A DNA stretch of 49,795 nt from an uncultured Acidimicrobiaceae bacterium (lineage in GTDB: Bacteria > Actinomycetota > Acidimicrobiia > Acidimicrobiales > RAAP-2): assembly GCA_963977795.1 (NCBI GenBank), contig CAXBRB010000001.1, positions 1 to 49,795 on the forward strand, given 5' to 3'. This document shows positions 11,426 through 36,108 of this stretch, piece after piece. Within the stretch, counting starts at the first letter, position 1. Each line of letters opens with the position of its first letter. The notes below the pieces were generated by a model that saw only the letters and a program-made list of their open reading frames with translations, was not told the DNA's origin and did no database searches. The translations under genes were made by a program, and so were the position numbers.

Positions 11426-11445
11426 GGCGGGCTCCTAGGTTCGGC

Positions 11446-14400: not shown

Positions 14401-14616
14401 GGGGGTGGGCACCCCGTTGACGGTGGTGTGACCCGGTTCCCCCTCCTCGGTGACGGCGAGACCCGTCGGCGTTACGTCGAAGCGCAGCCCGCGGTCCGCT
14501 GCCCGGTCCTCGGTGACGATGCGGCCGTCGGCGTCGAGGTCGAGGACGAAGGACCCGTCCACGCCGGTGTCCACCGTCGTCCCGTCCCCCGCCGAGTAGT
14601 AGAGCCGGTACTGCAT
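11446..14616 (-). CDS. Multidomain ABC exporter: FHA-like N-terminus, unknown ~220-aa region, type-I exporter TMD, canonical NBD, cNMP-binding-like C-terminus
   Basis: The TMD has six hydrophobic helices. The NBD carries GPTGSGKSS, LVAQDS, LSGGQRQR, LLILDEATSALD and SVSHR. The C-terminus reads PIFASLDDDVIEDLL...GSCFGISGLLGAASPAVLVA, a degenerate phosphate-binding cassette. The N-terminus reads ...HTTVNGVPT....V.PGDVVRNG.ATVVI, which is FHA-like. The ATG at 14616 shares one nucleotide with the kinase stop (TGATG). Confidence 0.85.
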   Translation of the reverse strand: MQYRLYYSAGDGTTVDTGVDGSFVLDLDADGRIVTEDRAADRGLRFDVTPTGLAVTEEGEPGHTTVNGVPTPGPVAVAPGDVVRNGAATVVIDAAVDGRPPMAAAITPFVVVRFHPDGPGAHVVADVARRAQLAVERLGDLGRGLRTRIPTVHLIDPTADPHHPDEILVDGSVVDPASCSVWTVVAGGAPPDPLERPLALCAGAALGAPPTSGPLLEAFGLWAAGSEDPTEALRTVADLPARDEASGELGAALQLSFVSYMVGRLGRQAVEHLLLAPTTEGGSQEEITDLEAAWRSHLAGSSGPGGGRSLLHLASTYLRPHWYRELELFCYTLVGLAFIAAFPFAFRTLIDSAIPSRQFSHVLAVIGVLLAIFAVSMAAQLRSTYLAAVVSTDVVRQIRSQMYDRLQHLPFGWFGEHEQGDVLSRIFSDVELVEQGLTQALRGGVAQVLSLTVSAVVMLTLDPVLGLITLASLPVVAVVYRLMTRGAQERSLAVQSETGGLLAIISEGYVGRAVIRAFGLEDRELHRMHEASSSLVRRQVRLALFGGYFQFSVSSIIILSRLVILLIGSWLVFHGHLTVGGLVAFVTVSAEAMGPVTELTTIGQQFQASTGAVSRIDEILEAPLEQPEVDLPPLEGVRQGIELRDVSFSYGAGHTTIDGVSFRVAVGERVAIVGPTGSGKSSILQLLLRFYQPDLGSILVDGVDLGTVDVSSWRRRIGLVAQDSFLFNASIAENIRMGRPDATDAEVEAVIAAVDLGAFVSELPDGVSTEVGEHGSRLSGGQRQRLALARALLRDPDLLILDEATSALDARTERLISATLADAGRGRTVISVSHRLASIADYDRIVVLEDGRLVEQGRHDELLALGGLYATLWSEQSVIGASPAIRDDARAALASVPIFASLDDDVIEDLLPLMRSDELPAGTAQDDDGSVILFIRDGSATIQEPDFSGAPVAVGELSAGSCFGISGLLGAASPAVLVATEALPVLVLDGDAVHALGATHPSLAAALAGRSEPVVIPRSAQRLGRVTLGHSRPVQPLTPPGAADADPTPPLRSPSS

Positions 14617-15674
14617 CACGGCACCTCTGTCCGGGCGCGTCGCTCGACGGCCGGTCCGGACCGTCGGGCCCGGCCGGGACGGTCGATTCGCCCCCAGCTG
14701 TGGGACGGCGCCTGGGGGTCGGACCTGCCGCCGGGACCTGGGTGGTGCTGGCGGGAGCCCCGCTCGGTCACGGCGACCAGCTCGGGAGCTCCGTGGATCG
14801 GCACATCCGTCGCTGAGAGCCATCCGGCACCCCAGGCGTCGGTCGCCGCGCTGGCGAGGGCCAGGCCGAACGCCATCGCCGAGCTCGGGCGATCGCGGTG
14901 GTCGGTGCGCAGACCGAGCATCACGACCTCGGCAACTGCCTCGGGAAGCTCCGGGTTCTTGGTGCGCAGCGGATCCGGCTGCTCGTAGGCGTGCTGGTAC
15001 AGCAGGTCCATCGGGTCTCCGGTCTCCTGGAACGGGAGCTCGCCGCACAGGAGCTCGTAGAGGACGGTGGCGGCGGCGTAGACGTCGGCGGCCGGGGTGA
15101 TCACACCGTTCCACGTCTGCTCGGGGGCGATGTAGGCCGGAGTCCCGACGATCTCGGACGCCTCCCCGCCTGACGCTGTCGATGTCTCCGTGGTGGTGGC
15201 GATGCCGAAGTCCGTGACCTTGAGGGTGCCGTGCTGGTTGAACAGGAGGTTCTCCGGCTTGATGTCCCGATGGAGGATGCCCCGTCCGTGCGCAGCGTCG
15301 AGCCCGGTCAGGCAGGCGAGGAGCAGCGCCACCGACGTGCGGGCCGTCAGCCCGGCATCGGCAAACCGGCTCCACAGGGAGCCGCCGGCCAGGTTCTCCA
15401 TGAGGAGGAGGAAGACGCCGTCGTGCTCGACGAAGTCGTAGACGGGGACGATGTGCGGATGGTCCACTGAGGCCAGCAGGGTCGCCTCCGCCACGAAGCG
15501 CTCCCGTGCGGCGTCGTCGGCGGCGAAGGCCCTCGGGAGGAACTTCACCGCGACCTCGCGTCCGAGCCGGTTGTGGCGGGCGGCCAGGACGACGCCGAGC
15601 CCCCCACGGCCGATCTCGCCGGTCACCTCGTAGCCCGGCAGCGCCGCGGCGACCAGGGGCCGGTCGAGCATCAC
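14616..15674 (-). CDS. Hanks-type Ser/Thr protein kinase, cytoplasmic, no TM segment
   Basis: GEIGRGGLGVV (P-loop), VAVK, HRDIKPENLL, DFG and GTPAYIAPE. GGGAGG lies 5 nt upstream of the start. The C-terminal ~75 aa are low-complexity. Confidence 0.9.
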   Translation of the reverse strand: MMLDRPLVAAALPGYEVTGEIGRGGLGVVLAARHNRLGREVAVKFLPRAFAADDAARERFVAEATLLASVDHPHIVPVYDFVEHDGVFLLLMENLAGGSLWSRFADAGLTARTSVALLLACLTGLDAAHGRGILHRDIKPENLLFNQHGTLKVTDFGIATTTETSTASGGEASEIVGTPAYIAPEQTWNGVITPAADVYAAATVLYELLCGELPFQETGDPMDLLYQHAYEQPDPLRTKNPELPEAVAEVVMLGLRTDHRDRPSSAMAFGLALASAATDAWGAGWLSATDVPIHGAPELVAVTERGSRQHHPGPGGRSDPQAPSHSWGRIDRPGRARRSGPAVERRARTEVP

Positions 15675-15858: not shown

Positions 15859-18336
15859 TCAGGAAGCCGAGCGGAGGCACATGGTCATCGGTTCGGGGAG
15901 GTGCTCGAAGAGCTCCCAGCCGGTCCACGGCGGGATGCGGAACCCCTGCTCGTCAGCGGTGAGCACCGTCTCGAACATCCGCACGGCGCCGGAGAGCCAG
16001 AACAGCTCGGAGCCAGCGTCCCCGCGGAGCACGGCGAGGAGCGCCTGGCCCGAGAGGTGCACGACGAAGCTGGCATCGGGGTGGGGCGTGGGACGAAGGA
16101 CGAGCTCGGCCGGTCGGAAGTCGATCGAATAGGTGAACCGGCGTCCACCCCCGACGTGGACGGTCGCCTGCCAGACCACCCCCCACTGCTTCCACGGGGT
16201 CAGGTCCATAGAGGACACGTAGGCGGAGAAGCGGGTGGTCAGGAACGTGTCGAGGAGGGTGGCGAGCTCGGCGATCTCGCCCTCGTCGACGCCGGGGAGC
16301 GTCGAGGTGTCGACAGGTTCGAACTCCTCGCTCGATCCGTTCCCGCCGCCGTCGACGACGACCGGCGAGGATGCCCGGCGGACATCGACCTGTCGTCCGT
16401 CGATGTGCACCGAGTCCCCGGGTCGGAGGACGCCGGCCCGTCCGTGGCCGAGCCGGCGTTCGAGCAGCCGGGCGATCCGGTCGTCACGGAGCGGGGCCAC
16501 GTACCGGTTGGCCCAGGCGGCCTCGGCGCAGTAGGCCAGGCCCCAGAACGACGGGAAGACGAAGCCTGGATCGGTGGCGCAGGCCGCCTCGAGCCAGTCC
16601 ACGACCGACGCCCGCTCGTCATGGCTGACGCCGAGTCCCCGCTGGGTGCTCCACAGGGCCGTGCCCGGTTGGAAGTGGGCCGCCACGCAGCCCATCGGCC
16701 CGAGCTCGTCGCGCAGCCGGGCCCCGACCCCCGGTCGCACCAGGGAGTCCGACACGTGCCAGTACGAGCCGTTGCCGCTCCGGATCACGACGCCGAACTC
16801 GTCCAGCTCGGCATCGGAGGGAGTGGCGGTGATCTCGACGTCGTCGTCCTTCCACCTGTCCCAGGGAGCGAGCGGATGGACGTCGGTGAATCCGAGTCGG
16901 TGGACGGTTGTCAGCAGGTAGTCGTCGTGCGGGGCGAGCACCGTCGCCGACCGTGGAAGCGAGGTGAGCGAGTCGGGGTGGAAGTGATCGAGATGCTGGT
17001 GCGTCAGGACGATGTGGGTGATCTCGGCAAGTTCGCCGTGCGCGAACGTCCGACGCGGCCGGAACTCGACCGTCCCCGACCCGATGACCGGAGCGAACAC
17101 CGGGTCGATGATGATCCGGCGTCGCTCGGTATCGACCAGGGTCGTGGCGTGGCCCGCCGCCGTCACTGTCAGGGACCCCGACCGCACGGCGGCCGGCAGC
17201 GTGCCGACCGACTCCCCGTGGGCGATCATCCGAGCCACCGTTTCGGGAGCATGCTGTTCGGCGATGGAGGCGGCGACGGCTGCTGCCGAGCGTCGGCCTG
17301 AGTCGCCGGAGCGCAACCGGATGGCCTCCACGAGCGCCCCGGGATCGGGCCCGGTGGCGTCGAGGATGGTGCAGGCTCCGGCCGCGGCGACCGCATCGGA
17401 CAGGAGCTGCTGGAACGGGCTGCACGGCAGGAGGACGAGGGGGACCCCCGAGGAGAGCGCACGGAGGACGGGGACGGGGTCGCCGTGGGTGACGACCACG
17501 TCCGGCGCCTCCTGCACGGCCGTCATCTCCGTGCCGTCCTCCTGGCGCGAGGCGAGCGAGGTGCGCTCGAGGGTGGTCGTGGACAGGCGGATCCCGTAGC
17601 CGCCGGCGTGCAGGGCCCCGACGGTGCGGGCGACCATCGGTGTCAGGTCGGTGGAGGTCAGCCCGAGATCGACCAGGACGGTCGGCGGGGTCCGTCCGTC
17701 CTCCGGTGCAGGAGCGCGGCGCTCGGGCTCAGGGGTGCAGCGCATCGGGATCGTCACCCCGGGAGCTTCGACGCCGTTGCGCAGCAGACGGGGGCGGATG
17801 TCGACGTAGGGGTGCGCGTAGAGCCCTGCGTGGGGTTCGGGCTCCAGGCCCCAGGTCCTCCACAGCGGAGCGACGGCGTCGGATGCTGCTGCCGTCCACT
17901 CGGTGGGGAGCACGGGCCCGCAGCACACCGACCGGACGCCGGCCAGACGGGCGGCCAGCGGAGCGGCCAGGGCGCACGGGTCGTGGGCCACCAGCTCGAA
18001 CCCCCCGTCGGCCACGAGCCGGATCAGGTCGGCTGCAGATGCCGGTGCCATGACCCCGCCGAAGAGGTGGGCCATCGAGAAGGCGCCGCGCTCGTTCCGG
18101 TCCAGCGACGCCAGGTCCGGATGGTTCCGGAGGTACTGCTGCCGGGCCTGCTCGGCGGGCCAGCCCACAGCGGTCCAGGATCCTGCCCCGGCGTCTGTCG
18201 GAGTGTCCGGCGGTCCGGCGAACTCGACGGCGTGGCCGAGCTCGGCGAATGCACCCGCCAGGGTGTCGAGAGGCCGCAGCAGCTCGGGCCCGCCTGCGGA
18301 GACGAAGAGGACGCGCACGGTGGGCTGATGGTACAC
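15859..18336 (-). CDS. Fusion protein: GT1 (MGT-type) glycosyltransferase-like N-terminal half, MBL-fold metallo-hydrolase domain, C-terminal SCP2-like region
   Basis: The N-terminus VRVLFVSAGG...LGH.V and the overall layout resemble GT-B glycosyltransferases. The donor motif is divergent (THGDPVPVLRALSSGVPLVLLPCSPFQQ). The MBL motif is VLTHQHLDHFHPDSL. The C-terminal ~180 aa (LSGQALLAVLRGDAGSELFWLSGAVRM) look SCP2-like. The start may instead be the GTG at 18318. Confidence 0.75.
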   Translation of the reverse strand: MYHQPTVRVLFVSAGGPELLRPLDTLAGAFAELGHAVEFAGPPDTPTDAGAGSWTAVGWPAEQARQQYLRNHPDLASLDRNERGAFSMAHLFGGVMAPASAADLIRLVADGGFELVAHDPCALAAPLAARLAGVRSVCCGPVLPTEWTAAASDAVAPLWRTWGLEPEPHAGLYAHPYVDIRPRLLRNGVEAPGVTIPMRCTPEPERRAPAPEDGRTPPTVLVDLGLTSTDLTPMVARTVGALHAGGYGIRLSTTTLERTSLASRQEDGTEMTAVQEAPDVVVTHGDPVPVLRALSSGVPLVLLPCSPFQQLLSDAVAAAGACTILDATGPDPGALVEAIRLRSGDSGRRSAAAVAASIAEQHAPETVARMIAHGESVGTLPAAVRSGSLTVTAAGHATTLVDTERRRIIIDPVFAPVIGSGTVEFRPRRTFAHGELAEITHIVLTHQHLDHFHPDSLTSLPRSATVLAPHDDYLLTTVHRLGFTDVHPLAPWDRWKDDDVEITATPSDAELDEFGVVIRSGNGSYWHVSDSLVRPGVGARLRDELGPMGCVAAHFQPGTALWSTQRGLGVSHDERASVVDWLEAACATDPGFVFPSFWGLAYCAEAAWANRYVAPLRDDRIARLLERRLGHGRAGVLRPGDSVHIDGRQVDVRRASSPVVVDGGGNGSSEEFEPVDTSTLPGVDEGEIAELATLLDTFLTTRFSAYVSSMDLTPWKQWGVVWQATVHVGGGRRFTYSIDFRPAELVLRPTPHPDASFVVHLSGQALLAVLRGDAGSELFWLSGAVRMFETVLTADEQGFRIPPWTGWELFEHLPEPMTMCLRSAS

Positions 18337-18344: not shown

Positions 18345-20327
18345 GTGCACGTGGCTCTGCTGTTCCCCCCGGTCGTGGACCCCCGGGGGCCTCATCTGGC
18401 GATCCCGTCCCTAGCGGCGCACCTGCGGGCGTCAGGGGTGCGCACCACGGTTCGGGACCTGAACGTCGAGGGCCTGTGGGCGTTGACCGAACCCGAGGCG
18501 CTGGAGGACCGGGTCGACGAGCGCACGGCGGCGGCCGTGGCCCGGGCCCGGTCGGTGCTCCGGGACCCCGAAGCGTTCTACGACCCCGATCAGCTGGCGG
18601 CGGCCCGGGCGGCCCTGGCGGCGGCGTGCACTGCCTGGAGCGACCCGGCCGGACGCGTCCGCTATCAGGCGATGGGTGCCGCCTATGACGTGGACGGCTG
18701 CGATCCGACCCGTCTGGCCGACCTGATCGCCGTCACCGCCGACCGATCCACCAATCTGTTCGACGGGCTCTGGCGTTCGGAGCTCCTCCCAGCCCTCGCC
18801 GAGGACCGGCCCGATGTCATCGGCATCTCCATCCTCAACCGTCAGCAGATCATCCCCGGTCTCCACCTCGCCCGCATGCTCCACGAGGCCGGGCACGTGG
18901 TGGCCATCGGCGGCACGGTGTTCGCCAAGTTCGCGCCCGAGCTCATGCGACGGCCGGCGTTCTTCTCGACGTTCTGCCGCGCCGTGGTCCCCTACGAGGG
19001 GGAGCACGCCCTCCTGGAACTCGTCCGGTCCGTGTCCGCCGGCGGGACCGGCGAAGGCGTCGCCAACACGCTGGTGCTCGGTCCGTCGGGAGCCGTCGTC
19101 GCCGGCCCGACCATGGTCGAAGAGGTCCCGCACCTGCCCACGCCCGACTTCGACGGCCTGCCCCTCGACCGGTACCTTGCGCCACACCTCGTGCTGCCGA
19201 TCCTGACGGGCAAGGGGTGCTACTTCAACCGGTGCAAGTTCTGCGACATCCCCGCCATCAACCGGATCTCCCCCCGGGCTTACCGGATGCGCCCGGCGGA
19301 TCAGGTGGCCGCGGATGTCGTCGCCCTCCATCGACGCCACGGCGCCCGGCACTTCGAGATCACCGACGAGACCCTCTCGCCGGCGTTCCTCCGCAAGCTC
19401 GGGCGCGCCCTTGCGGAGATCGACGGGGGTCCTGAGGTGCGAGCCCGATTCGTCGGCTACGCCCGATTCGAGCCCGGCTTCACCCCGGAGGCCTGCGCTG
19501 AGCTCTACGCCATGGGCGTGCGGAAGCTGTACTTCGGGTTGGAGTCCGGATCCCAGGTGATGCTCGACCGGATGGACAAGGGGATCCGCCTTCCCGTCGT
19601 GCGCACCGTGCTCCGCAACTGCGTCGAGGCAGGCATCGCCGTGCACCTGTTCTCGATCATCGGCTTCCCGGAGGAGACCGAGGAGCTGGCGGCCGAGACA
19701 GTCGGCTTCCTGCTCGAGGAGTCGGACACGCTCGCCGACCCCCGCAACACCTTCGACGTCCACCCGTTCGGCCTCGACCTGCGCACCGACTACGCCGACC
19801 AGGCTGACGAGTTCGGTGTGGACATCGACCGGGTGGTCCTCCGCACCCAGGACTTCCCGATCAGCGTCTCACGGTGGGTCAACCGCCGGGGGATGGATCC
19901 TGCCCAGGTCGCCGATGTGCTCGACCGGGCCGTGGGCTCGCTGCGGGAACGGTACCGGTCCTCGGGGCGGAACTTCCCGGACCAGCAGTTCCCCGGGTTC
20001 GAGGAATACGCCGTGCTCTACCTGGACCGCTACGAGGACGTCCCGTTCCTCCACCGGCTCAGCCTTCCTGAGCCCGACGACCCCCAGCGCTACTCCATCG
20101 AGTGGGCGGAGGACATCGAGCTCTCGTCGGAAGGTGCAGACGCCTGGAGCGTGCAGACGCGGTTCGGATCGTGCTCGGTCGGGGCCGACGAGCTGCGCGC
20201 CCTGGCGCCGTCCCGGCCGGGACAGCCGGTGGCCGGCCACCGCGCGGCCTGGGCAGATTCCGGTGTGGCGATGGCCACCGTGGACGGGCTCATCGCCATC
20301 CGGGCGCTCCTCCTCCGTCCGGCCTGA
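18345..20327 (+). CDS. B12-binding domain radical SAM enzyme (class B rSAM)
   Basis: The N-terminal half looks like a B12-binding domain (VALLFPP...PSLAAHLRASG, DVIGISIL....I.....LARMLHEAGH.VAIGG). The cluster motif GKGCYFNRCKFCDIP lies at nt 19218-19244. The GTG at 18345 is preceded by AGGGAGG at 18337-18343. Confidence 0.85.
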   Translation: MHVALLFPPVVDPRGPHLAIPSLAAHLRASGVRTTVRDLNVEGLWALTEPEALEDRVDERTAAAVARARSVLRDPEAFYDPDQLAAARAALAAACTAWSDPAGRVRYQAMGAAYDVDGCDPTRLADLIAVTADRSTNLFDGLWRSELLPALAEDRPDVIGISILNRQQIIPGLHLARMLHEAGHVVAIGGTVFAKFAPELMRRPAFFSTFCRAVVPYEGEHALLELVRSVSAGGTGEGVANTLVLGPSGAVVAGPTMVEEVPHLPTPDFDGLPLDRYLAPHLVLPILTGKGCYFNRCKFCDIPAINRISPRAYRMRPADQVAADVVALHRRHGARHFEITDETLSPAFLRKLGRALAEIDGGPEVRARFVGYARFEPGFTPEACAELYAMGVRKLYFGLESGSQVMLDRMDKGIRLPVVRTVLRNCVEAGIAVHLFSIIGFPEETEELAAETVGFLLEESDTLADPRNTFDVHPFGLDLRTDYADQADEFGVDIDRVVLRTQDFPISVSRWVNRRGMDPAQVADVLDRAVGSLRERYRSSGRNFPDQQFPGFEEYAVLYLDRYEDVPFLHRLSLPEPDDPQRYSIEWAEDIELSSEGADAWSVQTRFGSCSVGADELRALAPSRPGQPVAGHRAAWADSGVAMATVDGLIAIRALLLRPA

Positions 20328-20391
20328 CCGAGACAGCCTCGGGTCGGCGGCAGGACCGTGCTGAGGCGGGCGGATGCCGCCGGCGGGACGC

Positions 20392-20445
20392 TTGACTGCT
20401 GAAGGCGCTTGCCAGACACTGTCGGAGTGCTGGCGCCGTCAGCAC
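20392..20445 (+). promoter_or_regulatory. Putative promoter (TTGACT-17 nt-GACACT) followed by a 19-nt near-perfect palindrome, upstream of precursor A1
   Basis: -35 TTGACT at 20392-20397 and -10 GACACT at 20415-20420. Palindrome GTGCTGGCG-C-CGTCAGCAC at 20427-20445 has one mismatch. The same elements recur with the same spacing before A2, although the spacer sequences differ. Confidence 0.45.
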
Positions 20446-20482
20446 GTACTGCAGCAGCACACGATGGAGAGGAGCGCCGCAG

Positions 20483-20740
20483 ATGGCGGAGGAGCACGAG
20501 GGTGGTGTCGTCCTGCGGGGCGACGACGGATCGCTGTACTTCATCCGGGAGTCGACGCTTGCGGCCTGCAAGGCCGAGGGCGAGTTCGTTGACCGGGTGA
20601 ACGAGATGGTGGAGGGGAGCGAGGTCGAGGGGTACGCCCTCACGACGACGTCGCTGAGCACGGTGACCACGGTGTCCTCGACGTCGACGTCGACGCCGAC
20701 GGTGAAGCCGGCGGGCACCACCATGATGTGCCCCTGGTGA
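20483..20740 (+). CDS. RiPP precursor peptide A1 (85 aa): ~52-aa leader plus Ser/Thr-rich core ending MMCPW
   Basis: MAEEHEGGVVLRGDDGSLYFIRESTLAACKAEGEFVDRVNEMVEGSEVEGYA / LTTTSLSTVTTVSSTSTSTPTVKPAGTTMMCPW. 18 of the last 33 residues are Ser or Thr. RBS GGAGAGGAG is present. The gene is adjacent to the modifying enzymes and has a paralogue 422 nt downstream. Confidence 0.8.
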   Translation: MAEEHEGGVVLRGDDGSLYFIRESTLAACKAEGEFVDRVNEMVEGSEVEGYALTTTSLSTVTTVSSTSTSTPTVKPAGTTMMCPW

Positions 20741-20810
20741 TCGCCGACTCGTGACTGCCGGACGGCCGAGAAGGACTTGCCGTGGCTGGCGGATGCCCCC
20801 GGCAAGACGC

Positions 20811-20864
20811 TTGACGACAGGAAAGATCTGTCGGACACTGTGGGGGTGCTGACGCCGTCAGCAC
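20811..20864 (+). promoter_or_regulatory. Putative promoter (TTGACG-17 nt-GACACT) followed by a perfect 9-1-9 palindrome, upstream of precursor A2
   Basis: -35 at 20811-20816 and -10 at 20834-20839. Palindrome GTGCTGACG-C-CGTCAGCAC at 20846-20864. Confidence 0.45.
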
Positions 20865-20904
20865 TTCAGTACGTGGCAGCACACGACGGAGAGGAGCACC
20901 GCAG

Positions 20905-21156
20905 ATGTCGGAGGAGCAAGAGGGTGGAGTCGTCCTGCGGGGCGACGACGGTTCGCTGTACTTCATCCGGGAGTCGACGCTTGCGGCCTGCAAGGCCGAG
21001 GGCGAGTACGTCGACCGGGTGAACGAGATGGTGGAGGGGAGCGAGGTCGAGGGGTACGCCTTGACGACGACGTCGCTGAGCACGGTGACCACGGTGTCGA
21101 CGATTACTCCGACGTCGGTGAAGACGTCCATGACCACGGTCATGTGCCCCTGGTGA
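20905..21156 (+). CDS. RiPP precursor peptide A2 (83 aa), paralogue of A1
   Basis: MSEEQEGGVVLRGDDGSLYFIRESTLAACKAEGEYVDRVNEMVEGSEVEGYA / LTTTSLSTVTTVSTITPTSVKTSMTTVMCPW. The leader is 49/52 identical to A1. 17 of the last 31 residues are Ser or Thr. Confidence 0.8.
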   Translation: MSEEQEGGVVLRGDDGSLYFIRESTLAACKAEGEYVDRVNEMVEGSEVEGYALTTTSLSTVTTVSTITPTSVKTSMTTVMCPW

Positions 21157-21186
21157 CAGCCGCACGGTCCTGAACACAGGACGGCG

Positions 21187-21220
21187 GACGATGGCCCGGC
21201 CTTCCAGCCGGGCCATCGTC
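21187..21220. terminator. Bidirectional terminator hairpin between the convergent precursor genes and tfuA
   Basis: Perfect 14-bp stem GACGATGGCCCGGC / GCCGGGCCATCGTC with a 6-nt loop. A smaller hairpin GTCCTG-AACA-CAGGAC lies at 21167-21182. Confidence 0.7.
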
Positions 21221-21231: not shown

Positions 21232-22356
21232 TCAGGCGCCCTGGTCCCCTTCGGCGCCAGGGATGGCGTCGCGCAGGCGGGCTGTCGAGATGCGCAGCTG
21301 ATCGGCCATCAGCGCATCGATCTCGAAGCGGTGCTGCATCTGGAGCTTCTCGACCAGCACCGAGTCGATGATGAAGGAGAGCAGCGCCTCGTCGCTGATC
21401 CCCTCGGTCCGGCACCAGGACCGGAGGGCGTCGTCGTCCTCGAGGGCGTGGGTGGACCGGAACCGGGCCAGCTCATCGGCGAGCTCCTCGTTGGACACCG
21501 GGAGCGGCAGGGCGGACGCCCGCTGCCGGGCCAGGAGGCGCAGCAGGATCTTCTTGCGCATGACCGGCACCGTGTCGGTGCCCCGGAGCGGGGCCGGGTC
21601 GTCGAGCCGTCCCCCGGCCCGGGCGAGGTCGACCTCCACCTCCAGGTCGTGGAGGAAGACGGTGCGCTCGACATCGACGGGTCGTGCGGGTCGCGCCAGC
21701 TGGTCGACCGGCGTGGCGGCGACGAGCTCGAGCACCGACAGCGCGTCCTGCTCCTTCAGCCCCGGTCCATGTTCGGCGGCGAACCGCCGGAGCCGTTCGG
21801 CGGCTTCCGGCGGGAGGCCGGCTGCCTCGATGGCGGTCACCAGGTGCCGGTCGGGGAACGCAATCGATCGGGCGGCATCGACGAGGGCGTCACGTTCCCG
21901 GTCGTCGATCGCCCCGGAAGCATGGGCGCCAGTGAAGAGGTGCCGGAGGTCGACGAGGGCGTGGGACAGGGAGCGGTAGCCGGCGTCGGCATCGGCGTGG
22001 GCCACGGCCACTTCGTCGTCGTCCTCGATGGCACCGGTGCGGAACCACTCGAACACGGTCCCGTGTCCGATCATCCCGAACTGGTGGAGCTCGGCGGCGC
22101 GGAGCGCTCCCATGCTCGCCGCGCCCAGGACGGGGACGCCCGTGCTGATCGCCTGCAGGATCTCCTTGTGCCAGACCGACGGGACGAGCTCGAAGAACCC
22201 GTCGATGATCACCAGCGCAGCGGGCTCGTCGTACAGGGCCCGCAGGACGTCACCCTGGGACACCGGCGGATGGAGGACGGCATCCGGGACGATGGATCGG
22301 GCGACCGGGGCGGCGAGCGAGGGCCCGAGGAACACGTGGACACGTCCGACGCTCAC
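21232..22356 (-). CDS. tfuA: TfuA-like protein (YcaO partner for thioamidation)
   Basis: The N-terminus VHVFLGPSL.......PDAVLHPPVSQGDVLRAL...ALVIIDGFF....SVWHKEIL.A...GV.VLGAASMGALRAAEL is characteristic of TfuA. The GTG start overlaps the ycaO stop (GTGA). Confidence 0.85.
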   Translation of the reverse strand: MSVGRVHVFLGPSLAAPVARSIVPDAVLHPPVSQGDVLRALYDEPAALVIIDGFFELVPSVWHKEILQAISTGVPVLGAASMGALRAAELHQFGMIGHGTVFEWFRTGAIEDDDEVAVAHADADAGYRSLSHALVDLRHLFTGAHASGAIDDRERDALVDAARSIAFPDRHLVTAIEAAGLPPEAAERLRRFAAEHGPGLKEQDALSVLELVAATPVDQLARPARPVDVERTVFLHDLEVEVDLARAGGRLDDPAPLRGTDTVPVMRKKILLRLLARQRASALPLPVSNEELADELARFRSTHALEDDDALRSWCRTEGISDEALLSFIIDSVLVEKLQMQHRFEIDALMADQLRISTARLRDAIPGAEGDQGA

Positions 22357-23630
22357 GGGGTGCCACCGCGGGCAGTGGACCGGGCCCGCTGACCCGGCCG
22401 GTACGAGGGGGTGGAGCTGGCGCCCTCGAGGCCGGGGACCACGACCCGGACCACATGGACGGGGAGGTCGTCCATGGTGAGGTCGACCACCACCGGCTCG
22501 TCGACTCCGACGGCGGCGAGCGCCGCGAGGACGGCGTCCAGGTCGTCGTCGACGGTGGCCCCGGTGACCGTAGGTGCATCGGTGAACCGGCGCCTCCCGG
22601 TCTGCTCCGCCAAGGCCTGGAAGTGGCGCAGGGCGTCCCCGTCCTGGGTGGCCCGGACCCGGGCCCGGGTCAGGTCGTCCCGGGCACCGGAGATCGCAGT
22701 GAGCCGGGACTGGGCTGCCTCGGTCAGGGCGCGGACCAGCGCGATGCCACGGTCCGGATGGGTCCCTGCCCCGTAGGCCGCCCCGATCGGGCGCATGTGG
22801 GGATCAGCGGACCGGTCGGAGATGACCACCTGGAAGGTGGGGATCGGAATGTCCCTCGTCACCTCCCAGCAGATCACGGCGATGTCGGCGTCGGCATACC
22901 GGGCCAGGAGGCTACGGGCGACGGGGTGGTCCACGCTCTCGAGGTCCACCCGGCGGGCCCCGGGACCGGCGGGGTCGGCGGCGTGGAGCGCACCGGCATC
23001 GCGTTCGATCAGCTCGCAGAGCGCGTGGAGCGCCGCCTCGGCACGGGTGTTGCCGGAGGCCAGGCCGCTGGAGTTGCGCGAGAAGCACCCGCTCCCCGGG
23101 TGCAGCGGCAGACGGGCATCGGTGTGGACCAGCTCGTAGGGGACCCAGACGGGCCTCCCGGTGCGCAGCTGCTGGCCCTGAGCCCAGGGGATGACGAGGT
23201 CGGCGTGCCAACGGGTGTCGGCGCTCAGTTGCAGCCGGCTCGGGTCCATGGGGGCCGGGCCGGTGTCGTCCGTCCCGTGGCGGAGCTCGGACCACGAAGC
23301 GTGGCGGACGGTCACGGCGTGCTGCTCGCCGTGCCAGAGCTCCACCGCCTCCATGAGGGCGGAGGCCCGGGCGTCGTCGAGCGTGACCCCCTTCCCCTGG
23401 GACACGGCGAGGGATCGGCTGTTGGGCCGCACGGCCATCACGACTGGGATGCCGATGCGGTCCAGTCCGGTCACCGGGGCCAGGCGGGTGATGCCGAACC
23501 GGTCCCAGAGGATCGGCCGGAGGAGATCGACCGTCTGGGCGGCACCCCGGCTCCGCTGGGAGCCGTCGCACTTGGGCGTGACCGGACCGAGCCAGGCACG
23601 CAGTGCCGACCCCGGCGCAGCGGAGGTCAC
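22353..23630 (-). CDS. ycaO: YcaO domain protein
   Basis: Motifs RIGIPVVMAVRPNSRSLAVSQGKG and LMEAVELWHGE, plus the ATP/Mg motif SSGLASGNTRAEAALHALCELIERDA. The GTG at 23630 overlaps the stop of the upstream SpaB_C gene (GTGA). The 23768 start would overlap that gene by 142 nt. Confidence 0.9.
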   Translation of the reverse strand: MTSAAPGSALRAWLGPVTPKCDGSQRSRGAAQTVDLLRPILWDRFGITRLAPVTGLDRIGIPVVMAVRPNSRSLAVSQGKGVTLDDARASALMEAVELWHGEQHAVTVRHASWSELRHGTDDTGPAPMDPSRLQLSADTRWHADLVIPWAQGQQLRTGRPVWVPYELVHTDARLPLHPGSGCFSRNSSGLASGNTRAEAALHALCELIERDAGALHAADPAGPGARRVDLESVDHPVARSLLARYADADIAVICWEVTRDIPIPTFQVVISDRSADPHMRPIGAAYGAGTHPDRGIALVRALTEAAQSRLTAISGARDDLTRARVRATQDGDALRHFQALAEQTGRRRFTDAPTVTGATVDDDLDAVLAALAAVGVDEPVVVDLTMDDLPVHVVRVVVPGLEGASSTPSYRPGQRARSTARGGTP

Positions 23631-24361
23631 GGCCGCACGGCCATGGAGCGCACGGTGGCCACGAAGAGGTCGTCCCAGTAGGGCAGTCCCATCTGATTGG
23701 ACAGGAAGAAGGCAGCCGACCGACACCAGGCCCGGGGGCCGGCGGTCAGCACCCCGGCGTCGGCGCACGCCCGCAGCCGAACCCCGATCTCACGGATCTC
23801 GGGGTGGTCGCCGTCGTCGGACCGGTCCGGAAGATGCCACGGTCGATCCCGCCCCGACGCCTCGGGACCGTCGGGCAGCGCGGCGAGGATCTGGGACCAC
23901 ACGTCCCATCGCTCGTCGTCGTCGGCGAGCGCGCCATCCAGGAGGGCGCCCAACGCACCCCGCCACAGGACAGCACGGTGCTCCGGCGCCGCGTCCTCAG
24001 CCAGCACGGCGACGGCGGCCCGGGCGTGCGCGTCGAGGAGCCCGTGAGCGAGCTCCATCCCCACGCTCCCGCCGAACTTGTGCTCCTCGGCCTCGTACGT
24101 GGTGAGGCGGAAGCTGCGGACCTGGTTGCGGGCCTCTGCCTCGGCCAGCCAGGGCACCAGCCTGGCCACCAGCGAAGCGCCGTCATCGGCCGTCTCGAAC
24201 CGCAGCCGCACCCCGGGCGGCTTGCGGACGAACCAGAACCGACGGAGACCACCCTGGGTCCCGAGTCCGGAGATCTCGTCCCGGAGCTCCGCCCACGGGA
24301 AGCAGATGGGCTCCACGCCCTGCTGGGCGAAGACTGCGCAGCTGATCTGGGTCCACGTCAC
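23627..24361 (-). CDS. Lantibiotic dehydratase C-terminal (SpaB_C / thiopeptide-type elimination) domain protein
   Basis: 244 aa. RRFWFVRKPPGVRLRFE resembles the FF.RY.dP.pHLRLR signature of the elimination domain, and EEHKFGG is also present. The start overlaps the upstream stop by 4 nt. Confidence 0.75.
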   Translation of the reverse strand: MTWTQISCAVFAQQGVEPICFPWAELRDEISGLGTQGGLRRFWFVRKPPGVRLRFETADDGASLVARLVPWLAEAEARNQVRSFRLTTYEAEEHKFGGSVGMELAHGLLDAHARAAVAVLAEDAAPEHRAVLWRGALGALLDGALADDDERWDVWSQILAALPDGPEASGRDRPWHLPDRSDDGDHPEIREIGVRLRACADAGVLTAGPRAWCRSAAFFLSNQMGLPYWDDLFVATVRSMAVRP

Positions 24362-26085
24362 GGACGTTCCCTCCAGTACGACGGGTCGTGCCAGATGGCC
24401 CCGATCTCGGCAACGTACCGGCGACCGCTCCCGTCGGGAACGCCGGAGGGGGGCACCTCGCTGATCACGAGGCGGGCCGTCCCCGGGGGGACCCCGTTGA
24501 GCGCGGCACGGACGGCCAGCGGCGAGGACGTCCGCACGGGCAGCATCGGCCCATGGGGATGAGGGTCCCAGCGCACGTGGACGGCATCTGGCCAGCGGTT
24601 CTCACCGACGAGAGACTGCCACAGGAGGTACTGGGCTGCGCCGGTGGCCGTGAGCAGGTCGTCGAGTCGGTCCCCGTCGACTGTCCACCGCTCGGGGGAG
24701 AGGATGGCGCCACCGGGGAGGGTGAGCCGTGGCAGGTGCTTCCAGGTGGACCGCTCGCGCGGGAGTGCGGGGAACCCGAAGCCGGGGAGCTCCCACCCGA
24801 GTGACGACGCCGTGAGGGCCAGCAGACGGGAGAGGGGGTCCCTCGTCCCGATGGCGGCCGTGGAGTCGTAGGCCAGCACGGCCCGCACCCCGTCCTCCAC
24901 GAGGAACGGGGGATCCACGGCGACCGAGGAGAGGCCGGCGGCATCGAGGACCCGATCGGTCAGCGGAGCGACGGGCTCGCTGGTCTGCGGGCGGAGGGGA
25001 TCAGCACCCACGAGGCCGACCACCTCCAGGGGCCACGAGCGGTAGAGGTCCCGCACGGCCCGGGCGACCGGTGTGCGGGTGGCCAGGACCCCGGGATGGG
25101 GCCGGGATCCCCCGATCCACACGCCGGCGTCCGAGGGGGTGCAGACCACGGTGCCTGCCGGTCCGCCCCGGAAGGTCGGCTCGATGGCCACGGTCATGGA
25201 GGGTGCGGCGGCGTGCGGGCCGATCTCGTCCGTCCACTGTGCGATGGCCCGGTCGACCGCTGCAGCGGGGATCGGGCGGAGGCCGAAGACGCCCCGGGTG
25301 GTGTCGGGCTCGGCCGGCTGTGGCGGATAGAGGGCACCGTCGGCGATCATGTCGATCGTGGCGGCCCGGAACTGCTCGGCCCACCCGCCCCAGAAGCGGT
25401 GCTGCTCCTCGATGGCCAGGCCGATCTCCTGGCGGAGCCCGGTGCTCCACGTGAACCGGCACCCCGGAGCCGACCGGTCGATCGACCAGTCGTCCGCTCC
25501 TGGACCGACGACGCCGTCATGGGCCCAGCCGCCGAACGGGGTTGCCCGGCCGGCGGCGCGCAGGAGGAAGCGGGTCGCCGTGTCCTCGATCTTCGTGGTC
25601 CGTGCCCGGCCGTCGTCACCGTGCTCCAACAGCCGGGCCCAGTCGCGCCCGGCGCCCGGCGATGCAGCCTGCAGTGCCGTGCGGAACCGCTCGTCGGCCC
25701 CCAGCGCGTGCAGCCGGGAGCGCTGACGGTCCAGCTCGTGCTGGTAGGCCTCGTCAAAATCGGCCGTCAGGTCGGCCAGGCGGTTCCGCCGCCTTCGGTC
25801 TTCCTCGGCCGTCGCTGGGAGGTCGGTGCCGGCGGGGAGCGGCTGGCGGCCTCGGAAGGCGGTGCGGCGGGCGTCAAGGAGGGCCCGTCGGGTGGTCCGG
25901 TCGGAGGTGCCGGGGATGACCTCGCCCAGGGAGTCGACGACGGCGCCGCGGGCGGCATCCACGGCGTGGCGCAGCTGGCAGATGGCCGCTCCAGCACTGC
26001 GGAGTACCGGCGCCTCGAAGTCCACGATCTCGTCGAGCGCCCATGCGGCGACCCGACCGCTGGCGAAGGGCAGGACCTTGGGCAC
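24358..26085 (-). CDS. Lantibiotic dehydratase N-terminal (LanB glutamylation-type) domain protein, compact (575 aa)
   Basis: The RFLLRAAGRATPFGGWA motif (R..TPFG..A) and the overall layout fit the LanB N-terminal domain. I chose the GTG at 26085 because the longer ORF extension is Arg/Pro-rich and antisense to a well-supported MBL gene. Confidence 0.75.
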   Translation of the reverse strand: MPKVLPFASGRVAAWALDEIVDFEAPVLRSAGAAICQLRHAVDAARGAVVDSLGEVIPGTSDRTTRRALLDARRTAFRGRQPLPAGTDLPATAEEDRRRRNRLADLTADFDEAYQHELDRQRSRLHALGADERFRTALQAASPGAGRDWARLLEHGDDGRARTTKIEDTATRFLLRAAGRATPFGGWAHDGVVGPGADDWSIDRSAPGCRFTWSTGLRQEIGLAIEEQHRFWGGWAEQFRAATIDMIADGALYPPQPAEPDTTRGVFGLRPIPAAAVDRAIAQWTDEIGPHAAAPSMTVAIEPTFRGGPAGTVVCTPSDAGVWIGGSRPHPGVLATRTPVARAVRDLYRSWPLEVVGLVGADPLRPQTSEPVAPLTDRVLDAAGLSSVAVDPPFLVEDGVRAVLAYDSTAAIGTRDPLSRLLALTASSLGWELPGFGFPALPRERSTWKHLPRLTLPGGAILSPERWTVDGDRLDDLLTATGAAQYLLWQSLVGENRWPDAVHVRWDPHPHGPMLPVRTSSPLAVRAALNGVPPGTARLVISEVPPSGVPDGSGRRYVAEIGAIWHDPSYWRERP

Positions 26086-26094
26086 GGGTCCATA

Positions 26095-27546
26095 ATGACT
26101 GATGTGCGTCTGCAGCCGGATGTCGAACTCGTGGTGTCGATTGACGACGCAACGCCGTTCGGCTCGCCGATCGGTGCCCGACCCGAGCAGACCGTCCGGG
26201 AGGCGCTCGGGCCCATCGTCCGCCTCGTCGAGCGAGGGGGCCCCGATGCGGTCAGCCGGAGGAGCCGGGCCGCCCTCGTCGAGGCGGCAGGCCAGGAGGC
26301 GTTCCGGGCGATCGCTGCGCCGTCGGGCGGGGCCTGGGACGTCCGGGAGGCGTTCCGCTTCCCCGATCCGCTGCTGGCACGGCACGGAGCCCTCGATCTG
26401 GTCCGGGCCGGCACGAGCCTGCGGATCGGTGTCGAGCCCGGGCGGTGGGACCGTCTCCACGCCGCGCTGGCCCGTCCAGACATCTCCTCGCCTCTCGGGA
26501 AGGTGCTGTGGGAGCACGATCTTGTCGATGACGGGGAGAGCGAGACGGACCGGATGGACGCCGACCTGACCTTCGTCGGGCACAACACCGTGGTCGTCCG
26601 GGGCCCGCGGGCTTCGGTGATGGTCGACCCGTACTTCCGCCCAGCGGAGGCACGGTGGCCGACGGGCTACCAGCCGCTCGGTCCCGGTCAGCTCGGAGAC
26701 GTAGACGCCGTGCTCATCACCCACTCGCACCCTGACCACTTCGACCCGGCCAGCCTCCTGCGGATCGATCCGGACACGCGTGTGGTGGTCCCGGTGCTCG
26801 AGCGGGAGACCGTGCTGGCGGTCGATCTGGTCCGCCGCCTCTGGGAGCTGGGCTTCGCCGACGTGGTGGCGCTGGGATGGTGGCAGTCGATCACCGTGGG
26901 CGACCTCGAGATCACGGCGCTCCCCTTCTACGGGGAGCAGCCCACCGACGGGCCGGTGCTCCACCCCGAGATCAGGAACGCCGGCAACACCTATGTGGTG
27001 CGGACCCCGGGGTGGTCCGCCGCCTTCCTCGCCGATTCGGGTCGGGACCATCTCGGCGACGTCCGCGGCGTGGCCGACCGGTGGCACGCAGAGCATGGTC
27101 CTGTCGACGTCGTCTTCGGGGGGTATCGGGGCTGGTTCTCGTACCCGGCGGCGTTGGTGACCTCCTCGGTCGCCCGGTACCTCCCCTTCGTGCCCCCGGA
27201 GCAGTGGCAGGTGCGCCAGCAGCTCATGAACGGGCCGTCCGAGCTGATCGATGCCGCCGAGCGGTTCGGCGCCCGGTGGGTGGTCCCCTACGCAGACGGC
27301 GGGGCACCTTGGTTCTGGGAGATCGGCCTGGGGCCACGGCTCGATGGAGACCCGAGGGAGTCGCCGTCGTTCGACCCCTTCCCGGAACGTGTCGTCGAGG
27401 CCGCCGCCTCCCGCATGGTCATGGGGGGCGGGTTCCCGATGACGGGCTCGGTGGATGTCGTGGTGCTCCGGCCGGGCGACGGCGTCACCGGGCTGCCTGG
27501 GGCGATGACGACGGTGCGGCTGGACGGGCACGCCTGGCCCTGGTGA
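26095..27546 (+). CDS. MBL-fold metallo-hydrolase family protein with a ~165-aa N-terminal extension
   Basis: VLITHSHPDHFDPASL (HxHxDH) follows LTFVGHNTVVV. It resembles the MBL portion of the 15859-18336 fusion protein. ATG at 26095. Confidence 0.8.
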   Translation: MTDVRLQPDVELVVSIDDATPFGSPIGARPEQTVREALGPIVRLVERGGPDAVSRRSRAALVEAAGQEAFRAIAAPSGGAWDVREAFRFPDPLLARHGALDLVRAGTSLRIGVEPGRWDRLHAALARPDISSPLGKVLWEHDLVDDGESETDRMDADLTFVGHNTVVVRGPRASVMVDPYFRPAEARWPTGYQPLGPGQLGDVDAVLITHSHPDHFDPASLLRIDPDTRVVVPVLERETVLAVDLVRRLWELGFADVVALGWWQSITVGDLEITALPFYGEQPTDGPVLHPEIRNAGNTYVVRTPGWSAAFLADSGRDHLGDVRGVADRWHAEHGPVDVVFGGYRGWFSYPAALVTSSVARYLPFVPPEQWQVRQQLMNGPSELIDAAERFGARWVVPYADGGAPWFWEIGLGPRLDGDPRESPSFDPFPERVVEAAASRMVMGGGFPMTGSVDVVVLRPGDGVTGLPGAMTTVRLDGHAWPW

Positions 27547-27621: not shown

Positions 27622-28056
27622 TCAGCCCAGGCACGACCAGTAGGTGAAGGCCGCTGCGTTGGACACCCAGCCGGTGGTGGCGTCCTTGGCGGTGACGGTG
27701 CCGCTGTCGCAGGCGGAGACGGGCAGGGCGATGGAACCGGTGGCGTCCGCCTTGACCGTGATGATGGTGGTGGTCGGGGTCTTGTAGTAGTGGTTGGTGT
27801 ACGTCGACGTCACCGTGACCGAGCCGCCAGGGGTGAACTGACGCCCCGTCACCTGGTAGCCCATGAAGTACGAGGTGATCGGCGTCACGCTGATGACCGG
27901 GCAGGTGCCGGTGAAGGTCCGGGAACCGAGCACGCAGGCCTGCATGGTGTAGGTGGCCGCTCCGGCAGGGGCGGCGAGGGCAGCGGCGCCTCCGGTGGCG
28001 AGCGTACCGGCGACGGCGACGGCGGCGAGGGCGGTGGTGATGCGGTTGCGGTTCAT
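27622..28056 (-). CDS. Small secreted protein with four Cys, unknown function
   Basis: Signal peptide MNRNRITTALAAVAVAGTLATGGAAALAAPAGA. Strong RBS AAGGAGAA lies upstream of the ATG at 28056. The mature part is about 110 aa and is Thr/Ser/Tyr-rich. Confidence 0.7.
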   Translation of the reverse strand: MNRNRITTALAAVAVAGTLATGGAAALAAPAGAATYTMQACVLGSRTFTGTCPVISVTPITSYFMGYQVTGRQFTPGGSVTVTSTYTNHYYKTPTTTIITVKADATGSIALPVSACDSGTVTAKDATTGWVSNAAAFTYWSCLG

Positions 28057-28187
28057 CAGAGGTTCTCCTTGAGGGTTCGTGGTCGTCCGATCTGGACAAC
28101 AGCACTCTGAACGGCGGGAACCGGGCCGTCCGTCGTTCCGGCGACGCACGGACTGTCGTCGACCCGACGTCCACGGAGGAGCGCAGA

Positions 28188-36107: not shown

Positions 36108-36108
36108 C

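Follow-up and report, generated by a model that had tools for sequence, protein, structure and literature searches.

Two adjacent small genes in an uncultured Acidimicrobiaceae bacterium raise the question of which part of a short peptide, encoded among candidate modifying enzymes, is the part that is modified. The genes, here called preA and preB, lie in the window, a 49,795-nt stretch of contig CAXBRB010000001.1 (assembly GCA_963977795.1), and their products share a near-identical N-terminal region, differ in a middle segment and end alike in MCPW. A preliminary description of this DNA took the variable segment to be the modified core of a ribosomally made peptide that is modified after translation (RiPP), and MCPW to be a mere anchor. 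The analysis reported here makes it likely, though well short of certain, that preA and preB are recently duplicated, independently translated precursors of an uncatalogued RiPP family built from a leader, a variable middle and a modified T-x-M-C-P-W block. This block is probably the class-defining modified core, which would reverse the roles originally given to the variable segment and the anchor.

The preA gene (20483–20740, + strand) encodes a precursor peptide of 85 aa and preB (20905–21156, + strand) one of 83 aa; both were called as open reading frames (ORFs), and the peptides are 74% identical (E = 1e-39). Each gene is part of a duplicated unit that also comprises an upstream region and a ribosome-binding site. 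Unit A (20359–20746, + strand) was delimited by the direct-repeat families D1, D2, D3 and D5 together with pairwise alignment, and unit B (20778–21162, + strand) by direct repeats and pairwise alignment. The units are spaced by 416–422 nt and hold a 228-nt block at 95% identity, far above chance. The tandem duplication of upstream region and ORF first described is therefore upheld, though the cassettes are somewhat longer than first given, at about 385 nt each as against about 370 nt. The described layout of the peptides is also confirmed: residues 1–52 agree at 49 of 52 positions (the changes are A2S, H5Q and F35Y), the following 13 residues, LTTTSLSTVTTVS, are identical, the sequences then diverge to STSTSTPTVKPAGTTM in preA and TITPTSVKTSMTTV in preB, and MCPW precedes the stop codon in both. 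The copies differ chiefly over a stretch of about 50 nt. By alignment and Ser/Thr content, the divergent Ser/Thr-rich segment occupies 20678–20725 (+ strand) in preA, with a Ser/Thr fraction of 0.61, and 21100–21141 (+ strand) in preB. The codons of the conserved block, the proposed site of modification, are 20720–20737 in preA (T-M-M-C-P-W) and 21136–21153 in preB (T-V-M-C-P-W), both on the + strand. A palindromic (TCGACG)3 repeat at 20678–20699 (inverted repeat I8) encodes STSTST in preA and sits where the lengths of the copies differ; slippage in this repeat is a plausible source of the two-residue length difference.

Base composition and substitution pattern suggest that both ORFs are translated. 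The GC content at third codon positions (GC3) is 0.93 in preA and 0.90 in preB, as against 0.58–0.81 in every overlapping alternative or antisense ORF, in a window of 72% GC. The preliminary description had named a lack of synonymous-substitution bias between the copies as evidence against its reading, and such a bias is present: six of the nine nucleotide differences in codons 1–65 fall at third positions, and the Nei-Gojobori dN/dS is 0.26. The coding leader is 95% identical between the copies, compared with 78% for the non-coding DNA upstream. The duplication itself is ordinary, because RiPP clusters commonly carry multiple precursors for one set of enzymes, and it is limited to the lineage of the window; the closest syntenic relative, locus L023, and all other loci have a single precursor.

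The peptides belong to a family that is rare and uncatalogued. A word-indexed search of 5.8 billion proteins returned 13 relatives, and an exhaustive profile (hidden Markov model) search of 1.84 billion cluster representatives returned 109 at E <= 1e-3. Neither Pfam nor NCBIfam has a model that matches either window peptide or any of the 84 family members tested. Known precursor families were considered and set aside, since they gave sub-threshold noise alone (DUF5818 in two of the 84 members, and PA2928). Literature searches brought up no account of the family, and neither RiPPER nor global TfuA surveys list it. Its members span Actinomycetes, Acidimicrobiales-type metagenome-assembled genomes (MAGs), Alphaproteobacteria and other Gram-negative-type organisms. 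Family alignments reveal a leader of about 50 residues, G..LRG.DGSLYFIRDE.L..CK.EGE...EVEG[FY], that is kept over about 100 clusters and is followed by an unalignable hypervariable middle and then by a conserved block near the C terminus. As initially judged, the leader is of none of the familiar types: a search with the regular expression F[ND]L[DENQ] found no FNLD-type motif in either window leader, neither of these leaders has a double-Gly site before the core, and the TIGR03798 (Nif11) and NHLP leader models match neither the window peptides nor the 84 family members.

The C-terminal block can be described from the 94 representatives that carry it. Met-Cys is invariant (94/94) and is followed by Pro (or Cys) and then by Trp (or Gly). 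Thr occupies position −2 in 92 of the 94 sequences, with Ser at position −3 in 64 and Val, Ile or Leu at position −1. The block is terminal in most members, and other clades extend it by FC... (MCPWFC), by a single A (MCPWA) or, after MCPG, by a tail of 15–30 residues. Because the block is internal in some clades, the conserved unit is T-x-M-C-P-W itself and not its place at the stop codon.

Genomic context was compared at seven loci, the window among them, for which 10 kb or more of flanking sequence is available. L023, from a metagenome, matches the gene order of the window throughout, its proteins being about 50% identical; beside its single precursor it encodes a fused glycosyltransferase (GT)-metallo-β-lactamase (MBL)-fold protein 1 (MBL1), an S8 protease, a GAF-domain protein, an ABC transporter and a kinase. 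L001, an Actinomycetes MAG, has YcaO, TfuA, MBL1, the N-terminal half of a split LanB dehydratase (LanB-N), a radical S-adenosylmethionine (SAM) protein and a second MBL-fold protein (MBL2). In L014, also metagenomic, MBL1, both LanB halves (LanB-C and LanB-N) and a radical SAM protein accompany a flavin-dependent Trp halogenase (PF04820, 348 bits; motif GWCWNIP). L022, an NCBI genome of the MCPG-plus-tail clade, arranges precursor, radical SAM protein, YcaO, TfuA, an MBL-fold protein and a fused LanB as one operon. L027, from the cultured Methylobacterium oryzisoli, has a precursor ending in YSTVMCPW, three radical SAM proteins, LanB-C, LanB-N, TfuA, YcaO and a weakly Trp_DMAT-like protein; it has no MBL-fold protein within 10 kb. 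The seventh, L024 (with L025), comes from a Gram-negative-type organism and encodes an MBL2-LanB-C fusion, MBL1, LanB-N, a Trp halogenase, a Cupin_8 protein and a C39-ABC/HlyD/OEP exporter, with no YcaO, TfuA or radical SAM protein within flanks of about 10 kb. Shorter contigs (L010–L016) add MBL1, LanB-C or a Trp_DMAT prenyltransferase beside the precursor.

The enzyme neighbourhood of the precursors recurs in different phyla, and split LanB is the one enzyme found at all seven of these loci. The radical SAM/YcaO/TfuA module follows the DGSLYFIR-type leader, and MBL-fold proteins are frequent, not universal. The preliminary description had proposed to look for YcaO, TfuA and LanB beside homologues, and would have given up the RiPP precursor reading if homologues proved widespread without modification enzymes. 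In fact the homologues are not found broadly without such enzymes: LanB stands beside them at all seven loci, usually with YcaO, TfuA, a B12-type radical SAM protein and an MBL-fold protein.

The most informative comparison is with L024/L025, where a 106-aa peptide (7884–8204) carries a Nif11-like leader, a double-Gly site (...LDTVAGG) and the core IGLGVAAPGVVSKTILEGEGTIMCCW, which ends in ...GTIMCCW. The match of this leader to TIGR03798 is weak, at 21.3 bits and below the 32.3 cutoff. The recognition (leader) region and the core are thus separable, since the core occurs here behind another leader, and peptides P0074, P0082 and P0103 join the leader of the family to another C terminus. In these three and in P0086, a DGSLYFIR-type leader without T-x-M-C runs instead to a common ...PSRRR[LF] ending, and the leader seems, from these sequences, to have been reused with a second type of core.

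Genes for enzymes that act on Trp occur in four clusters: halogenases with the GWCWNIP motif in L014 and L024, and Trp_DMAT-type prenyltransferases in L010 and, weakly, in L027. An assignment of the halogenase-like genes as hydroxylases of the cysteine tryptophylquinone type (QhpG/LodB) was rejected, because the GWCWNIP and Lys motifs of halogenases stand in both, and PF04820 matches one of them with 348 bits.

These comparisons argue that T-x-M-C-P-W is the modified core. It is the sole conserved part of the peptide after the leader, it co-occurs with LanB wherever the context is adequate, and its Trp is the evident target of the accessory halogenases and prenyltransferases. Its portability between leaders, as in L024, argues for a core and not an anchor. 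The original proposal that the variable segment is the modified part and MCPW merely anchors the peptide is accordingly not supported: the motif is invariant, is internal in some clades, is portable and is accompanied by Trp-tailoring enzymes in four clusters.

The enzymes that would act on the block are encoded around the precursors. Between 8.9 and 27.5 kb, the window contains, in order, genes for an ABC ATPase, an S8 protease, a GAF-domain protein, an ABC exporter, a Ser/Thr kinase, a GT1-MBL1 fusion, a radical SAM protein, preA, preB, TfuA, YcaO, LanB-C, LanB-N and MBL2. The split LanB is, on the strength of family profiles and conserved residues, a genuine dehydratase. Its elimination domain (Lant_dehydr_C/thiopep_ocin; 23627–24361, − strand) matches PF14028 with 56.9 bits, and also TIGR03891. 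The LanB-C profile aligns to residues 772–847 of NisB; the arginine of the RLR motif (R786 equivalent) is invariant, and that of the ExxRFGG motif (R826 equivalent) is conserved. The glutamylation-type domain (24358–26085, − strand) is a short, 575-aa form supported by the frame plot and a PF04738 match of 39.7 bits, and the LanB-N family profile matches TbtB (6EC7, E = 2.7e-16), MibB and the goadsporin biosynthetic protein 9JHQ. Matches to the Protein Data Bank came from profile searches alone; single-sequence searches with the LanB halves gave none. Each cluster has one Lant_dehydr_C gene. No LANC_like match was found in 34 window ORFs, which comprise all cluster genes and the larger GC3-supported ORFs, with the smaller flanking ORFs left unscanned, and no LanC was detected in the related loci.

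A 1057-aa ORF on the − strand (24358–27531) was considered as a single gene and rejected, because the frame plot and homologues resolve the region into two genes, one for the 575-aa LanB-N and, on the other strand, one for an MBL-fold protein. The tblastn match of the N-terminal part of this ORF to a related locus (E = 1.6e-20) was likewise dismissed as an antisense artefact of the MBL gene. That the antisense translation of an MBL gene can yield a significant match is a trap in high-GC DNA.

The YcaO and TfuA genes are adjacent (21232–23768). YcaO (22353–23768, − strand; PF02624, E = 1.3e-81) is closest to the thioamidation type: its best-scoring model is TIGR03266, the YcaO of McrA-glycine thioamidation, at 217 bits, which is under the equivalog cutoff of 365. 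TfuA (21232–22356, − strand; PF07812, E = 3e-44) carries a C-terminal extension of about 150 aa (residues ~215–374) whose counterpart in Methylobacterium stands alone as a 124-aa protein, with its gene just upstream of LanB-C (L027, 8776–9150). The extension is a candidate leader-binding module; it could not be assigned to a known RiPP recognition element or chaperone domain, as it has no Pfam match. The cluster proteins of the window include no match to ThiF or SagB and no azoline dehydrogenase. The radical SAM protein (18351–20327, + strand; 658 aa) is of the B12-binding type by Pfam and NCBIfam and has orthologues of about 51% identity in L001, L014 and L022. Its best NCBIfam match is a RiPP C-methyltransferase subfamily, far below cutoff. 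In place of the canonical CxxxCxxC, it has CYFNRCKFC (Cx4Cx2C), which is kept in four lineages (the window, L001, L014 and L022).

Two MBL-fold proteins complete the set. The first is the C-terminal domain (residues 388–825) of a protein (15859–18336, − strand) whose N-terminal domain (residues 6–372) is a SnogD-like GT1 glycosyltransferase; the fusion occurs only in the window and L023. The AlphaFold2 model of MBL1 has a mean predicted local distance difference score (pLDDT) of 90.8 and a predicted template-modelling score (pTM) of 0.89. By fold and by profile it is closest to CmlA (4JO0) and FrsH (8A90), with TM-scores of about 0.4, and NAPE-PLD and UlaG-like hydrolases come next among the fold matches. 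The profile alignment has invariant HxHxDH and Asp residues, no canonical motif-3 His, and a Glu at the position of Glu377 of CmlA. MBL2 (26125–27546, + strand; 473 aa), identified by frame plot, Pfam and paralogue alignment, has HxHxDH and LPFYGEQ, the latter at the same place as LPFLGEH in CmlA. This ligand pattern would fit a carboxylate-rich dinuclear site, which suggests an oxygenase rather than a hydrolase. MBL2 ends in ...GHAWPW before the stop codon (27520–27546); L022 has ...GHTWPW at the corresponding place, and the fusion junction of L024 reads ...HQTWPF. The resemblance of this WPW end to the C-P-W end of the substrate may reflect mimicry of substrate or product, or may be coincidence.

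Known systems share parts of this enzyme set. The closest published system is that of the nocathioamides of Nocardia terpenica, thioamidated class I lanthipeptides made by a split LanB (PF04738 + PF14028) and TfuA/YcaO, also in an actinomycete RiPP cluster. Their cluster additionally has LanC, a second Ocin-ThiF/YcaO and a SagB azole dehydrogenase, and the 51-aa precursor has an FDLN-type leader and three Cys (PMC8362196). In contrast, the family of the window has an unrelated leader without an FNLD motif, one core Cys, no LanC and no azole machinery, and adds B12-type radical SAM and MBL-fold proteins. The closest LanB relatives are those of thiopeptides and goadsporin (TbtB/TbtC and GodF/G), TbtB being the closest solved relative of LanB-N, and some thiopeptides, such as the thioamidated thiopeptin and saalfelduracin, also use TfuA-YcaO (PMC8120280). 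Unlike thiopeptide clusters, those of the present family have no second Lant_dehydr_C-type [4+2] enzyme, no YcaO and dehydrogenase for making azoles and no Cys/Ser-rich core, but one Cys and one invariant Thr. Class I lanthipeptide systems (NisB/NisC) share a LanB-type dehydratase that keeps its elimination-site residues, and differ in having LanC, an undivided and less divergent LanB, an FNLD motif and an unrelated leader. Thioamitides of the thioviridamide family share the adjacent YcaO-TfuA pair, from which backbone thioamidation is predicted. However, their dehydration relies on a kinase and a HopA1 lyase, and their AviMeCys arises from a C-terminal Cys through a LanD-type decarboxylase, whereas in the window no APH-type kinase, HopA1 lyase or LanD was matched by Pfam and two residues follow the Cys.

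The remaining parallels concern the MBL-fold proteins and the leaders. CmlA and FrsH, the best matches of MBL1, are MBL-fold diiron β-hydroxylases with which it shares the HxHxDH motif and the Glu at the position of Glu377, without the motif-3 His. They act on carrier-protein-tethered amino acids in nonribosomal peptide synthetase pathways and have a different N-terminal domain; the partner of the window proteins would instead be a ribosomal peptide, and their extra domain is C-terminal or is a fused GT or LanB-C. Nif11 and NHLP systems with C39-ABC export resemble L024 in its Nif11-like leader, double-Gly site and C39-ABC/HlyD/OEP exporter, and in the cyclic-nucleotide-binding modules that accompany the exporters, whereas the window leaders have neither Nif11 or NHLP similarity nor a double-Gly site. 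Judged by gene content, the family would be a RiPP family outside class I lanthipeptides, thiopeptides and thioamitides, undescribed and with an unusual set of enzymes.

A pathway can be proposed from these family assignments. The leader of about 50 residues would be the recognition handle; it co-occurs with the radical SAM/YcaO/TfuA module. The split LanB would glutamylate the invariant Thr and then eliminate glutamate to give dehydrobutyrine, to which the invariant Cys, three residues on, would add, forming a four-residue methyllanthionine-type thioether. The Thr(i)/Cys(i+3) pair, invariant across the family, is the sole sequence support for a (methyl)lanthionine, and the spacing is that of nisin ring B. 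The single (methyl)lanthionine that the preliminary description allowed for would still explain the invariant Thr and Cys most economically. As there is no LanC, ring closure would be spontaneous or aided by another protein. YcaO-TfuA would then install a backbone thioamide, the B12-type radical SAM protein would C-methylate or otherwise alkylate, and the CmlA-like MBL-fold proteins would carry out an oxidative step. The hypervariable middle probably stays in the product as its diversified N-terminal part, and in the lineage of the window, where it is Ser/Thr-rich, the GT1 domain of the MBL1 fusion might O-glycosylate it. Cleavage near EVEGY by the S8 protease would remove the leader, and export would be the task of the ABC transporters. 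With the precursor gene duplicated, a single set of enzymes would turn out two products, alike except in the middle segment.

Several observations weigh against this reading. The main weaknesses are that neither the window nor the related loci have a LanC-type cyclase, which leaves ring closure without an assigned catalyst, and that the invariant Met has no explained role in the proposed chemistry. In the LanB-C protein of the window the R826 equivalent is Lys, and its LanB-N is about 270 aa shorter than those of relatives. Generic MBL hydrolases score nearly as well as CmlA and FrsH for MBL1, and the metal is placed by alignment alone. The correlation between GT and Ser/Thr content rests on two lineages, and the MBL gap in L027 and the YcaO/TfuA/radical SAM gap in L024 are judged on flanks of about 10 kb. 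Finally, two contigs of the MCPWFC clade, L017 (7.2 kb) and L021 (5.4 kb), have an Amidohydro_2 neighbour and no LanB. In these contigs, Amidohydro_2 lies beside the precursor (308–1849 in L017, 4775–5446 in L021), with NTP_transf_5 also present in L017, and YcaO and radical SAM genes are likewise missing. The MCPWFC clade may use a different enzyme set for the same motif.

A bolder version of the reading is that of a new RiPP class, in which a LanC-independent split LanB and CmlA-like MBL-fold dinuclear-iron enzymes together make a conserved S-T-x-M-C-P-W warhead that holds a novel crosslink or an oxidised Met or Cys. This proposal is tentative and is considered possible rather than probable. 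If it is true, it would be the first use of the CmlA-like oxygenase fold on a ribosomal peptide, and the warhead would be further decorated in modular fashion with thioamide, methyl, halogen, prenyl or glycosyl groups.

Among the rival explanations, the one that survives best assigns another fate to the Cys: a thiazoline formed from Met-Cys by YcaO, or an MBL-driven rearrangement or crosslink of the Cys, for instance to Trp, with the Thr dehydrated and no ring formed. The presence of YcaO, the intact dinuclear ligand sets of the CmlA-like MBL-fold proteins, the placement of Cys and Trp two residues apart and the lack of LanC are all compatible with this explanation. However, the Cys is invariant in L024, which lacks YcaO, and in L027, which has no MBL-fold protein within 10 kb; Thr and Met are invariant there as well, even though L024 also lacks TfuA and a radical SAM protein. 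In addition, the YcaO is paired with TfuA, fits the thioamidation type best and has no E1-like or Ocin-ThiF partner or azoline dehydrogenase, and Gly replaces Trp in one clade with the same enzymes. A different fate of the Cys is for these reasons thought unlikely.

Somewhat less probable still is the initial proposal in its strong form, namely that the Ser/Thr-rich variable segment is the main modified core, subject to multiple dehydrations, glycosylations or rings, and that MCPW is a fixed anchor or recognition element. The copies do diverge exactly in the Ser/Thr-rich segment, the middle segments of the window are 61–62% Ser/Thr, and the cluster has a LanB dehydratase, a GT1 domain and a Ser/Thr kinase. 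Ser/Thr richness is, however, limited by lineage. The fraction in the middle segment is 0.61–0.62 in the window, 0.35 in L023 and 0.07 in L001, which has the same enzymes, against a family median of 0.21; the window and L023 segments rank first to third and seventh of 55, and a Ser/Thr-rich middle is essentially confined to the lineage of the window. It is the motif, not the variable segment, that is invariant over about 94 representatives; the motif also stands behind an unrelated leader, the Trp-tailoring enzymes aim at one of its residues, and there is a single core Cys for rings. A comparison of the window with L023 is suggestive of a GT domain that tracks the Ser/Thr-rich middle segment, with two lineages as the sample; a further Ser/Thr-rich relative, P0021, sits on a contig of 1.1 kb, too short to widen this correlation. 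The kinase (14616–15674, − strand; assigned by Pfam and NCBIfam, and conserved with L023) was considered as a dehydration kinase of class III/IV type and is not favoured as such, as its best matches are PknB-type. The FHA, GAF and cyclic-nucleotide-binding modules on the exporters suggest a regulatory role for it.

Equally improbable is a scaffold-peptide pathway like those of pyrroloquinoline quinone (PQQ), mycofactocin or the pearlins, in which the peptide would be a mere carrier: its modified Met-Cys-Pro-Trp would be released as a small molecule or cofactor, and its variable part would serve as a disposable spacer. Such a pathway would account for a very short invariant C-terminal block behind a long non-conserved spacer, and the LanB-like N-domain shares its superfamily with the peptide aminoacyl-tRNA ligases (PEARLs). 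The pairing of radical SAM and MBL-fold proteins recalls PqqE/PqqB, and the Trp halogenase and prenyltransferase genes and the S8 protease would also fit. On the other hand, a separate elimination domain, which PEARLs lack, is found here with its catalytic equivalents, and further residues follow the motif in the MCPWFC, MCPG-plus-tail and MCPWA clades. Export of a peptide is also predicted, since L024 combines its double-Gly site with a C39-ABC exporter for a 26-aa product, and the window has peptide-type ABC exporters.

The idea that the duplication is an assembly artefact, or that preA and preB are chance ORFs of a kind that high-GC DNA yields in numbers, was already rejected and has next to no probability left, because, although three assemblies (L002–L004) have a single chimeric gene, the pair recurs in four spanning assemblies from two projects (L005–L008) and in part in a fifth contig, L009, with preA and the start of preB, the ORFs have coding-like GC3 and dN/dS, and protein-level conservation extends over about 100 homologous clusters from different phyla. 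In L002–L004, the single precursor is an exact chimera, copy A followed by copy B, with the junction inside the identical stretch of the leader (9078–9329 in L002). The chimera comes from samples of the same series that also give the tandem pair, and it reflects either an allele with a deletion by recombination or the collapse of a repeat.

With the two-precursor arrangement retained, the sequences around the genes can be considered. The duplicated upstream stretch covers 124–127 nt before each ATG and includes a TTGAC hexamer, a palindrome and the ribosome-binding site. The latter, GGAGAGGAG, is read at 20466–20474 (+ strand) for preA and is identical at 20888–20896 for preB. The −35-like hexamer TTGAC(T) is conserved between the copies (20392–20397 in A, + strand, and 20811–20816 in B). 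The duplicated promoter of the preliminary description is putative, as a scan gave no full match to the sigma-70 consensus; the scan found no intrinsic terminator consensus either. The palindrome GTGCTG-N-CAGCAC (inverted repeat I3; 20426–20445 in A, 20846–20865 in B) is not significantly stable as an RNA hairpin, with fold z-scores of 0.02 and −1.67, and could be an operator. The duplicated 5′ region has no Rfam match at the gathering score. Between the convergent preB and tfuA genes lies a perfect 14-bp hairpin (21187–21220, inverted repeat I9) of −46.7 kcal/mol (z = −7.3), which has no T-run and no comparable counterpart after preA. It is likely to be a terminator common to both cassettes.

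The remaining cluster genes lie upstream on the − strand. These encode an ABC ATPase with a cyclic-nucleotide-binding domain (8925–10124, Pfam), the subtilisin-like S8 protease that is the candidate leader peptidase (9934–11007, Pfam), a GAF-domain protein (10880–11425, Pfam) and, by domain matches, a peptide-type ABC exporter with transmembrane, nucleotide-binding and cyclic-nucleotide-binding regions (11446–14616); the protease and GAF genes are syntenic in L023. Cyclic-nucleotide-binding, GAF, FHA, FHA-adenylate cyclase and Ser/Thr kinase modules recur near exporters in the window (8925–15674), L014 (8897–9877), L023 (12141–15956) and L024 (4910–5425), which suggests that export or production is signal-gated. 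On the other side, the cluster adjoins a gene for a 175-aa Thr-rich protein with a signal-peptide-like N terminus and no Pfam match (27622–28149, − strand), followed by one for a pyridoxal phosphate-dependent decarboxylase (28188–29537). An fhaA/FHA-PP2C-PBP-PknB(PASTA) cell-division locus (34907–40901) lies about 7 kb from the cluster, and a mycothiol S-transferase gene is found at 3889–4506. Both are consistent with a chromosomal actinobacterial origin of the window.

New RiPP families are found regularly. If the favoured reading is correct, the present family would be an uncharted RiPP class whose precursor would be missed by tools that rely on Pfam or NCBIfam precursor models. It raises the questions of how a Thr-Cys thioether, or some other structure, is made without LanC, and of how CmlA-like MBL-fold metalloenzymes act on a ribosomal peptide. 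Experiments on these questions are feasible in cultured or genome-sequenced carriers, namely Methylobacterium oryzisoli (GCA_045764235.1) and the strain of GCA_043199435.1. The occurrence of one core behind two leaders, and of one leader before two cores, also raises the question of how leader, core and enzyme modules recombine. Finally, the invariance of the six-residue block suggests a conserved molecular target and hence a possible bioactivity of the products.

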